Part shown: positions 17,457 through 23,876 of the stretch, in pieces
Layout of the letters: each line of letters opens with the position of its first letter
How positions within the stretch are numbered: the first letter of the stretch is position 1
Origin: Escherichia coli
GTDB lineage: Bacteria > Pseudomonadota > Gammaproteobacteria > Enterobacterales > Enterobacteriaceae
NCBI RefSeq assembly: GCF_024223415.1
Contig: NZ_CP100500.1
Strand: one strand, 5' to 3'
Length of the DNA: 64,000 nt
The notes under the pieces: model-generated
Databases searched by the model: none
What the model was told of the DNA's origin: nothing
Seen by the model: the letters and a program-made list of their open reading frames with translations, nothing else
Position numbers and translations under genes: made by a program

Positions 17457-19118
17457 ATGAGTGATATAGCATTAACGGTCAGTATTCTGGCTTTGGTGGC
17501 AGTCGTCGGTTTGTTTATCGGCAACGTCAAATTTCGCGGCATAGGATTAGGTATTGGCGGCGTGCTGTTTGGTGGGATCATCGTCGGCCATTTTGTTTCT
17601 CAGGCGGGGATGACATTAAGTAGCGATATGCTGCATGTTATTCAGGAATTTGGCCTGATCCTGTTCGTTTATACTATCGGGATTCAGGTAGGGCCGGGCT
17701 TCTTTGCCTCATTGCGCGTCTCCGGATTACGCCTCAACCTGTTTGCTGTTCTGATCGTCATCATCGGTGGTCTGGTTACCGCCATCCTGCATAAACTGTT
17801 TGATATTCCACTGCCGGTAGTGCTGGGGATTTTCTCCGGTGCGGTAACCAATACGCCAGCGCTGGGGGCAGGGCAGCAGATCTTGCGCGACCTGGGTACA
17901 CCAATGGAAATGGTCGATCAGATGGGGATGAGTTACGCGATGGCGTATCCATTCGGCATTTGCGGGATATTGTTCACCATGTGGATGTTGCGGGTTATTT
18001 TCCGCGTCAATGTCGAGACAGAAGCCCAGCAGCACGAGTCTTCACGCACCAATGGCGGCGCGCTGATCAGGACTATCAATATTCGCGTTGAGAACCCTAA
18101 CCTGCATGATTTAGCCATTAAAGATGTACCGATTCTCAACGGCGACAAAATTATCTGCTCGCGTCTGAAACGCGAAGAAACCCTAAAAGTACCTTCGCCA
18201 GATACCATTATACAACTGGGCGATTTGCTGCATCTGGTGGGGCAGCCAGCGGATTTACATAATGCGCAACTGGTGATTGGTCAGGAGGTCGATACTTCGC
18301 TGTCCACGAAAGGCACTGATTTGCGCGTCGAGCGTGTGGTGGTCACCAATGAAAACGTGCTCGGAAAACGTATTCGCGACCTGCACTTTAAAGAACGCTA
18401 TGACGTTGTTATCTCGCGCCTGAACCGTGCCGGGGTCGAACTGGTCGCCAGTGGCGATATCAGCCTGCAGTTCGGCGATATCCTCAATCTGGTGGGGCGT
18501 CCGTCCGCAATTGATGCCGTTGCCAATGTGCTGGGGAATGCGCAGCAAAAACTGCAACAGGTTCAGATGCTGCCAGTGTTTATTGGCATCGGGCTTGGCG
18601 TATTGTTAGGTTCTATTCCCGTCTTTGTGCCTGGGTTCCCGGCCGCGTTGAAACTGGGGCTGGCGGGCGGTCCGCTGATTATGGCGTTGATCCTCGGGCG
18701 TATCGGCAGTATCGGCAAGCTGTACTGGTTTATGCCTCCAAGTGCCAACCTCGCGCTGCGGGAGCTGGGGATCGTGCTGTTCCTCTCGGTCGTTGGTCTG
18801 AAATCTGGTGGGGATTTTGTAAATACCCTGGTCAATGGCGAAGGGCTAAGCTGGATTTGTTATGGTGCCCTGATCACCGCCGTTCCGCTGATTACTGTTG
18901 GCATTCTGGCGCGGATGTTAGCCAAAATGAATTACCTGACCATGTGCGGGATGCTGGCAGGTTCCATGACCGATCCTCCGGCGCTGGCGTTTGCTAATAA
19001 TCTTCATCCAACCAGCGGTGCGGCGGCGCTCTCTTACGCCACTGTCTATCCGTTAGTGATGTTCCTGCGCATTATCACCCCCCAATTACTGGCGGTGCTC
19101 TTCTGGAGTATCGGTTAA
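17457..19118 (+). CDS. yidE: Putative transporter YidE (AAE family, 553 aa)
   Basis: Duplicated membrane domains flanking central TrkA_C-like region; start placed at MSDIALTV. Confidence 0.8.
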
Positions 19119-19752
19119 CTCTTTTCCGGGTGGAGTCGCCGTAAATGGTACTCCACCTGGTATTCGCTGGCATTTCTGAACATCACTGAATAATTCAAAA
19201 ACTCCCCGCTCTCGCTATATGACAACGAGGTGATCCGCAGCAGTGGCGTGTGTTCCGCTACCTTCATTTGCCGCGCCAGCAGTCTATCGGCGAGCACTGG
19301 CGTCAGGCTTTCATAATTACCGACAATCAAAATCCCGCACTCTTGTTCAATATATTCAAACTTCGACCCTTCCAGATGTTGCAGCGAAAGATTACGGAAC
19401 AGTTTTACCGGCATATAGCTGTCTTCCAGCATCAGCGGTTTCCCTTCCACAAAACGAACGCGACGGGAGAAGTAGATCTGCTCGTTGATTTGAATCCGTA
19501 ACTGGCTGGCAATGGCCGGAGGCGCAGGCATGATTTCAAAAATCAGCACCTGGCTGGTGACCGTTTTTCCCTGCCGTGGCGGCGGACCACCAACCCCCAC
19601 GCTACCAGCAGGTCAATGGCTTTACGGATGGTCATCCGCGATACCGCAAATTCTTCCGCCAACTTTTTTTCACCGGGAAGAAGGCTGTTTAGCGTGAAAT
19701 CTGCGGAATTAAGTCGAATTCTTAACCGCTCCGCAATGCTTTTGTAGATCAT
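19115..19752 (-). pseudogene. yidP: GntR/HutC-family transcriptional regulator YidP, disrupted by frameshift/internal deletion
   Basis: The N-terminal wHTH (MIYKSIAERL...VVRRHG, stops at 19543) and the C-terminal UTRA-like domain (19115..19600) lie in different frames; the 638-nt span is not a multiple of 3. Confidence 0.7.
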
Positions 19753-20047
19753 CTCTAGATCTCTTTTTTGCCTGCAAGCCCGGGTAATGCGCCCACAAGT
19801 TCTGCTTAATCGATTGAAAAAACATCTTATTTTTAAAGATGTGTTCGATGCTGTGTACCTGTGCTCACAGAGGTCTACTTTTTCGCGAAAACGTAGATCT
19901 CTACCGCCCAACGAAAAGCATGAAAGCGATCACGAATCCCATTGGGTCGTCATGTTCTGCCGATCGCATCTTCCTATCCTCGCTCCAGGCCTGCCGCATA
20001 ACCAATCAGGCTTCCTACTTACAGAATTGAGAAAAGAGGATGTGGAA

Positions 20048-23876
<3,829 letters not shown>

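Follow-up and report, generated by a model that had tools for sequence, protein, structure and literature searches.

A lineage-shared 79-bp deletion has made a pseudogene of the GntR/HutC-type gene yidP beside open glvCB and glvA genes in Escherichia coli

The glv locus of Escherichia coli, in which a regulator gene and a sugar transport and hydrolysis operon are transcribed divergently, was analysed within a window, the whole stretch of 64,000 nucleotides of DNA under study. On the minus strand, positions 19115..19752 are occupied by yidP, a gene of the GntR/HutC family, present as a pseudogene with a 79-bp deletion according to both the alignment with K-12 and the PGAP label 'frameshifted'. 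On the plus strand lie two open genes, glvCB (20048..21664), encoding an alpha-glucoside PTS EIICB permease of 538 residues, and glvA (21664..22986), encoding a GH4 6-phospho-alpha-glucosidase of 440 residues. The divergent arrangement of yidP and glvC(B), recorded in the initial annotation, is evident from the 295-bp intergenic region between them (19753-20047), a shared control region containing blocks that are conserved across six genera. The source of the window is apparently closely related to E. coli B and C. Many complete assemblies carry the yidP deletion junction at the window's own coordinates (19556-19599), so the window probably covers the opening 64 kb of a chromosome record that was rotated to begin at a standard point, assumed here to be dnaA.

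When the minus strand of positions 19100-19770 was aligned with yidP of K-12 MG1655 (717 bp), an ortholog in the same place between yidE and glvC, the outcome was a single clean 79-bp gap and five substitutions, that is, differences at 5 of the 638 nucleotides outside the deletion. The deletion is thereby defined, and the earlier estimate that the two gene parts span 638 nt and fall about 79 bp short of a 238-aa homologue proves exact, as 717 - 79 = 638, the length of 19115..19752. In K-12, the tetranucleotide ACGG opens both the segment that was lost and the sequence retained right after it, forming a 4-bp flanking repeat, and the window keeps one copy at the junction (19574..19577 on the minus strand; CCGT on the plus strand, by the K-12 alignment). 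Retention of one repeat copy in this way is the signature of microhomology-mediated deletion. The loss removes nucleotides 176-254 of the coding sequence, corresponding approximately to residues 61-85, which comprise the second wing strand (GSGTYLV), the inter-domain linker and the start of the UTRA domain, and it shifts the frame.

As a result of this shift, the helix-turn-helix 5' part and the effector 3' part lie in different frames, as had been claimed; according to the open reading frames and their translations, the offset is 2. The N-terminal remnant (19543..19752, minus strand) starts from the ATG at 19752 and reads MIYKSIAERL...VVRRHG, 60 native residues of a winged helix-turn-helix recognized by translation and Pfam, followed by the frameshifted nine-residue tail REKRSPARC and a stop codon at 19543-19545. 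The C-terminal remnant (19115..19573, minus strand) corresponds to YidP residues 86-238, the UTRA effector domain, and is out of frame with the start codon; an ORF at 19115..19600 on the same strand contains RQGKTVTSQ...RRLHPEKS and ends at 19115. In the intact K-12 protein, Pfam places the GntR domain (PF00392) at residues 3-64 (E = 6.8e-21) and the UTRA domain (PF07702) at residues 87-224 (E = 2.2e-30). The N-terminal fragment of the window still matches PF00392 over residues 3-61 (E = 6e-20), covering model positions 2-60 of 64, and because the match ends at position 60, the last wing strand is missing. The two domains that characterize HutC/UTRA regulators are not found on one polypeptide in the window, where a stop intervenes nine codons past residue 60, and the sole product from the native start is a wing-less helix-turn-helix fragment of 69 aa, devoid of the effector/dimerisation domain. 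The window carries a pseudogene of the HutC/UTRA subfamily of GntR regulators, not a functional member, and this yidP is a null or near-null allele arising from one 79-bp deletion. The idea that the homologue is naturally short and in one frame was ruled out, given that the orthologues of E. coli and six other genera have 238-255 aa in a single frame. The N-terminus of the Raoultella and Kosakonia orthologues annotated at 248-255 aa seems to have been called too far upstream, and in all six genera a conserved start, (A/G)TGATCTACAAA, lines up with the ATG of E. coli yidP. The out-of-frame UTRA part also bears a substitution, G163V (GGC>GTC at codon 163, window position 19323), which among 16 compared loci is confined to the window, B, C and ATCC 8739; this lineage-specific change is consistent with drift after inactivation of yidP.

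The allele is by no means confined to the window. Positions 18900-20100 show 100% identity to E. coli B REL606, BL21(DE3), strain C and a large number of natural isolates, and RefSeq/PGAP labels the same 638-nt interval of REL606, strain C, ATCC 8739 and others 'GntR family transcriptional regulator, frameshifted'. Of 5426 complete E. coli genomes, 251 contain a 44-mer over the junction (window 19556-19599), the match having one or two mismatches in 126 and being exact in 125, many of the latter being laboratory B derivatives. Such recurrence excludes sequencing or assembly error, a concern that accompanied the initial annotation. K-12-type yidP was detected by full-gene search at a coverage of at least 80% in 4274 genomes, mostly full length, and the intact 717-bp gene, in about 4000 genomes, is the common state; yidP is absent altogether in ~1040. 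The 79-bp deletion allele accounts for ~6% of yidP-bearing complete genomes, a share for which the full-gene search provides the better denominator: the deleted 79-bp segment used as a query matched 2602 genomes, an undercount of intact alleles, since megablast requires an exact word of 28 nt and the query is short and polymorphic. The deletion is found on at least three local SNP haplotypes, defined by few differing sites within yidP, indicating that recombination moved the allele or that the deletion recurred. Thus, the gene is disrupted relative to intact orthologues by an identical lesion shared among many genomes, as expected of a lineage-fixed pseudogene, and the deletion is inherited, common to the phylogroup-A lineage with E. 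coli B, C and ATCC 8739, and carried by other strains as well. As RefSeq already annotates this allele for E. coli B and C, the pseudogene is not new; the lesion is real but ordinary, an already-annotated, lineage-shared pseudogene. A different allele of 212 aa, with an in-frame deletion of 26 aa between GLV-coding repeats overlapping the wing/linker region, occurs in Shigella boydii and draft E. coli, and its junction had no match among complete E. coli genomes; several further in-frame yidP deletions, each observed once, are present in protein databases.

The neighbouring operon was described by the initial annotation as apparently intact, and this holds as far as the reading frames of glvCB and glvA are concerned. 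GlvCB scores 953.5 bits against NCBIfam TIGR02005 (cutoff 607.3; model positions 2-523 of 524), which identifies it as an alpha-glucoside EIICB, and it is 81% identical end-to-end to its Raoultella orthologue. The GH4 gene follows directly downstream, its start codon overlapping the glvCB stop at 21664, and GlvA attains 914 bits to PDB 6dux (a 6-phospho-alpha-glucosidase) and 747 bits to 1u8x (a maltose-6'-phosphate glucosidase), with 89% end-to-end identity to the Raoultella orthologue. Across diverged yidP-deletion genomes, the GlvA protein is identical (WP_000160104.1). The description needs qualifying for the permease, since GlvCB of the window, B, C and ATCC 8739 carries L320P (window 21006), which precedes the GITEPLEF motif by three residues, and G357S (window 21116), at positions where 12 other E. 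coli loci, Raoultella and Serratia show no variation. A 44-mer with the proline allele is present in 130 of 5426 genomes, matching the size of the exact-junction yidP group (125). As these substitutions fall at otherwise invariant sites, the glv operon may not work even if transcribed, and the open glvCB frame may not encode a working permease. Both substitutions could reflect drift of a gene no longer needed or the attenuation of a permease that is derepressed.

Across the species, lesions of this locus are distributed as a patchwork, in which K-12 represents the mirror image of the window: its yidP is intact (717 bp) and its glv operon dead, and in the window the situation is reversed. The K-12 glvC/glvB split is due to a single nonsense change, Q369* (window 21152, C>T), and the K-12 glvG pseudogene to a 508-bp deletion of glvA (window 22257-22764) flanked by the 8-bp repeat GAACCACT. 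The junction of the latter deletion is present in ~2600-2750 genomes, a range spanned by two probes ~140 apart: the first, which also matched undeleted genomes over 30 nt and is usable only as a count at a coverage of at least 80%, gave 2613, and the second, symmetric one implies ~2750. With the undeleted segment in 1649 genomes, the glvA deletion is the majority allele in E. coli. A strict incompatibility between the yidP and glvA deletions was considered and rejected, since a concatenated two-junction query (19556-19599 and 22239-22790), which hit 3004 places in 2953 records, revealed 51 genomes with both, including Ec-U10, O68:H12 strain 97.3 and AMSCJX03; these genomes imply that the lesions recombined or that one of them recurred. 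Undeleted glvA accompanies the yidP deletion in 200 of the 251 carriers, compared with about 35% elsewhere. Among sampled genomes, the yidP deletion accompanies open glvCB and glvA in REL606, C, ATCC 8739, ECONIH5, AW1.7, OkiPb01676 and NCTC10444 and a deleted glvA in Ec-U10, such that both frames are open in seven of the eight deletion carriers. Intact yidP is combined with the glvA deletion in K-12, YPE10, O111:H8 8B and NT1N34, and everything is intact in PapRG-04-4, O55:H7 DEC5E and WL297. The glv locus is accessory and decays as a mosaic across E. coli, a pattern that speaks against a strong adaptive meaning for any one lesion.

The control region between yidP and glvCB bears several candidate regulatory elements. 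A 34-bp near-palindrome at 19869..19902, with AGAGGTCTACTTTTTCG and CGAAAACGTAGATCTCT as the arms of an inverted repeat that is 88% complementary, is a candidate YidP operator, and its core, GTCTAC-TTTT-N6-AAAA-nnGAC, stands at a fixed spacing from a CRP-like site in five of six genera, the copy in Serratia being degenerate. The CRP-like site, CATGAAAGCGATCACG at 19919..19934, is assigned from its agreement with the TGTGA-N6-TCACA consensus and is nearly invariant in the six genera, with TGTGATAGCTCTCAAA as the Mangrovibacter copy. A -10-like hexamer, TATCCT (19975..19980, plus strand), belongs to the conserved block TTCCTAT(C/T)CTC and would put the CRP-like site near -61; the assignment is weak because a sigma-70 consensus promoter scan of the intergenic region between yidP and glvCB found none. 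Both the -10 and the CRP assignments derive entirely from cross-genus conservation and consensus. The ribosome-binding site of yidP is associated with an AGAGRTCTA box (19753-19764), conserved in six genera. Together, the palindrome (GTCTAC...GTAGAY), the CRP-like site, TATCCT and the AGAGRTCTA box constitute a control cassette with fixed spacing in six enterobacterial genera. Several GATC (Dam) sites are located inside the TCTAC boxes of this region. Relative to the putative glv start, the centre of the palindrome lies ~100 bp upstream, which is an odd place for simple promoter occlusion.

Conservation of this cassette points to YidP as the local regulator of glv. A GntR gene divergent from genes for EIICB and GH4 proteins is retained as a module in Raoultella, Cronobacter and Kosakonia, and the same module occurs with different flanking genes in Serratia aquatilis and Mangrovibacter, moving as a unit. 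YidP is taken to be the local glv regulator because the module is conserved in six genera and is accompanied by the conserved palindrome and the CRP-like site. Homologues of YidP carry the JGI name 'GntR family glv operon transcriptional regulator'. The searchable literature contains no experiment on YidP, nor on glv expression in any E. coli, B included. Acting like its HutC-type relatives, YidP would probably repress glvCB-glvA from the conserved palindrome/TCTAC boxes, and a phosphorylated alpha-glucoside would release it from the operator. Without YidP, the operon would lose inducer-responsive control and would most likely be derepressed, subject to catabolite (CRP-type) control only. The reading favoured here, to which a probability of roughly 0.7 is assigned, is therefore a joint one: the window has inherited a null or near-null yidP, YidP is a local HutC-type regulator of glv, likely a repressor, and its loss most likely derepresses glv. 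The derepression, suggested from sequence by the initial annotation as well, is a reasonable inference.

The most serious competitor, given perhaps one chance in four, is neutral decay, in which glv is dispensable and largely silent, the loss of yidP had no regulatory effect, and the allele owed its spread within a clonal lineage to drift or hitch-hiking. In most genomes with the locus, glvA has already been lost to the 508-bp deletion, K-12 has a glvC nonsense mutation in addition, ~1040 genomes are without yidP, and other independent yidP deletion alleles exist; the 51 genomes with both deletions are as expected for such decay, and G163V in the dead yidP as well as L320P and G357S in GlvCB would fit equally. 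Against decay, glvCB and glvA stay open, the GlvA protein is identical across diverged genomes with the deletion allele, and the control region is highly conserved. Neutral decay is compatible with the yidP null allele and hence disputes only a phenotype. A further reading, in which the deletion makes glv constitutive under CRP alone in the B/C lineage, L320P and G357S compensate for a costly or toxic permease, and the patchwork of lesions reflects epistasis among regulator, permease and hydrolase under sugar-phosphate stress rather than drift, is speculative and judged unlikely.

Should YidP be an activator, the deletion would silence glv instead of derepressing it. The candidate operator is placed further upstream than the CRP-like site and does not cover the putative -10/-35, the -35 region is as poor as in activator-dependent promoters, and the permease substitutions could mark the decay of an unexpressed gene. 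However, regulators of PTS operons that have a UTRA domain are as a rule repressors, which sugar phosphates release, and the closest characterised relatives (NagR/YvoA, DasR, HutC, B. subtilis TreR and PhnF) are described as repressors, which makes an activator improbable. It is still harder to credit the 69-aa N-terminal fragment with enough operator binding to serve as a weak, non-inducible repressor. In favour of such residual activity, 59 of 64 GntR model positions are still matched, and the DNA-binding domain of YvoA has been solved in isolation (PDB 4u0y, a 78-residue chain), but the second wing strand and the entire UTRA domain, which gives dimerisation in the family, are gone, the out-of-frame tail may destabilise the fragment, and monomeric wing-less helix-turn-helix fragments usually bind very weakly. 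A sequencing or assembly artefact, or recoding that still yields full-length YidP, can be dismissed, since the 251 complete genomes with the identical junction were independently assembled and, with 26 codons' worth of structured protein deleted, restoration of the frame could not yield native YidP.

The import of the lesion itself is little beyond bookkeeping; RefSeq already flags it for the widely used B and C strains. Its modest, practical value lies in the combination of genotypes: yidP is naturally null in BL21, REL606 and strain C, whose glvCB and glvA are open, and K-12 is yidP+ with a dead operon. B/C and K-12 thus offer a ready-made pair for assigning a function to the uncharacterised YidP, and the same pair could reveal whether alpha-glucosides, such as isomaltulose, maltitol or methyl-alpha-glucoside, can be used by B and C.

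Comparison with other systems places the window first of all among its nearest relatives. The pseudogenes ECB_RS18860 of REL606 and DIZ83_RS14985 of strain C are this very allele, identical in its extent of 638 nt, and show no difference from the window at yidP. Over the 11.2-kb locus, the window and REL606 differ at four positions (14453, 18858, 22999 and 23433), and over 6.5 kb the window shows one difference from strain C, two from ATCC 8739 and three from REL606. At 18858, codon 468 of yidE, the window has T for the G of REL606, C and ATCC 8739 alike, giving YidE G468C, and a 44-mer centred on this variant matched none of 5426 complete E. coli genomes; the SNP is either private to the source strain or a mistake in its sequence.

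By model and PDB scores, GlvCB and GlvA of the window resemble the agl products of Klebsiella pneumoniae (AglA, an EIICB, and AglB, a 6-phospho-alpha-glucosidase) and GlvA/GlvC of Bacillus subtilis, the activity in E. coli B and C being putative. The agl genes of K. pneumoniae expressed in K-12 confer growth on alpha-glucosides, while K-12's own homologues are cryptic or truncated (PMC5309279). YidP shares the two-domain architecture of NagR/YvoA of B. subtilis and DasR of Streptomyces, although the allele of the window cannot make the two-domain protein; the best PDB match of K-12 YidP is YvoA (E = 3e-24 over residues 2-233), at only ~30% identity. The regulator of the B. subtilis glv genes is GlvR, an RpiR-type activator and not a GntR/HutC protein. 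The operator half-site GGTCTA of the window resembles the GGTCTAGACC-type sites of the HutC/UTRA subfamily. In E. coli, the cryptic asc beta-glucoside operon is activated by disruption of its repressor gene ascG, as shown by selection and genetics. Like glv and yidP, asc and ascG combine a sugar PTS/phospho-glycosidase operon with a divergent local repressor gene beside it, a role that is presumptive for YidP. Unlike ascG disruption, which was obtained as a selected mutant, the yidP deletion is a natural lineage polymorphism for which derepression is presumed.
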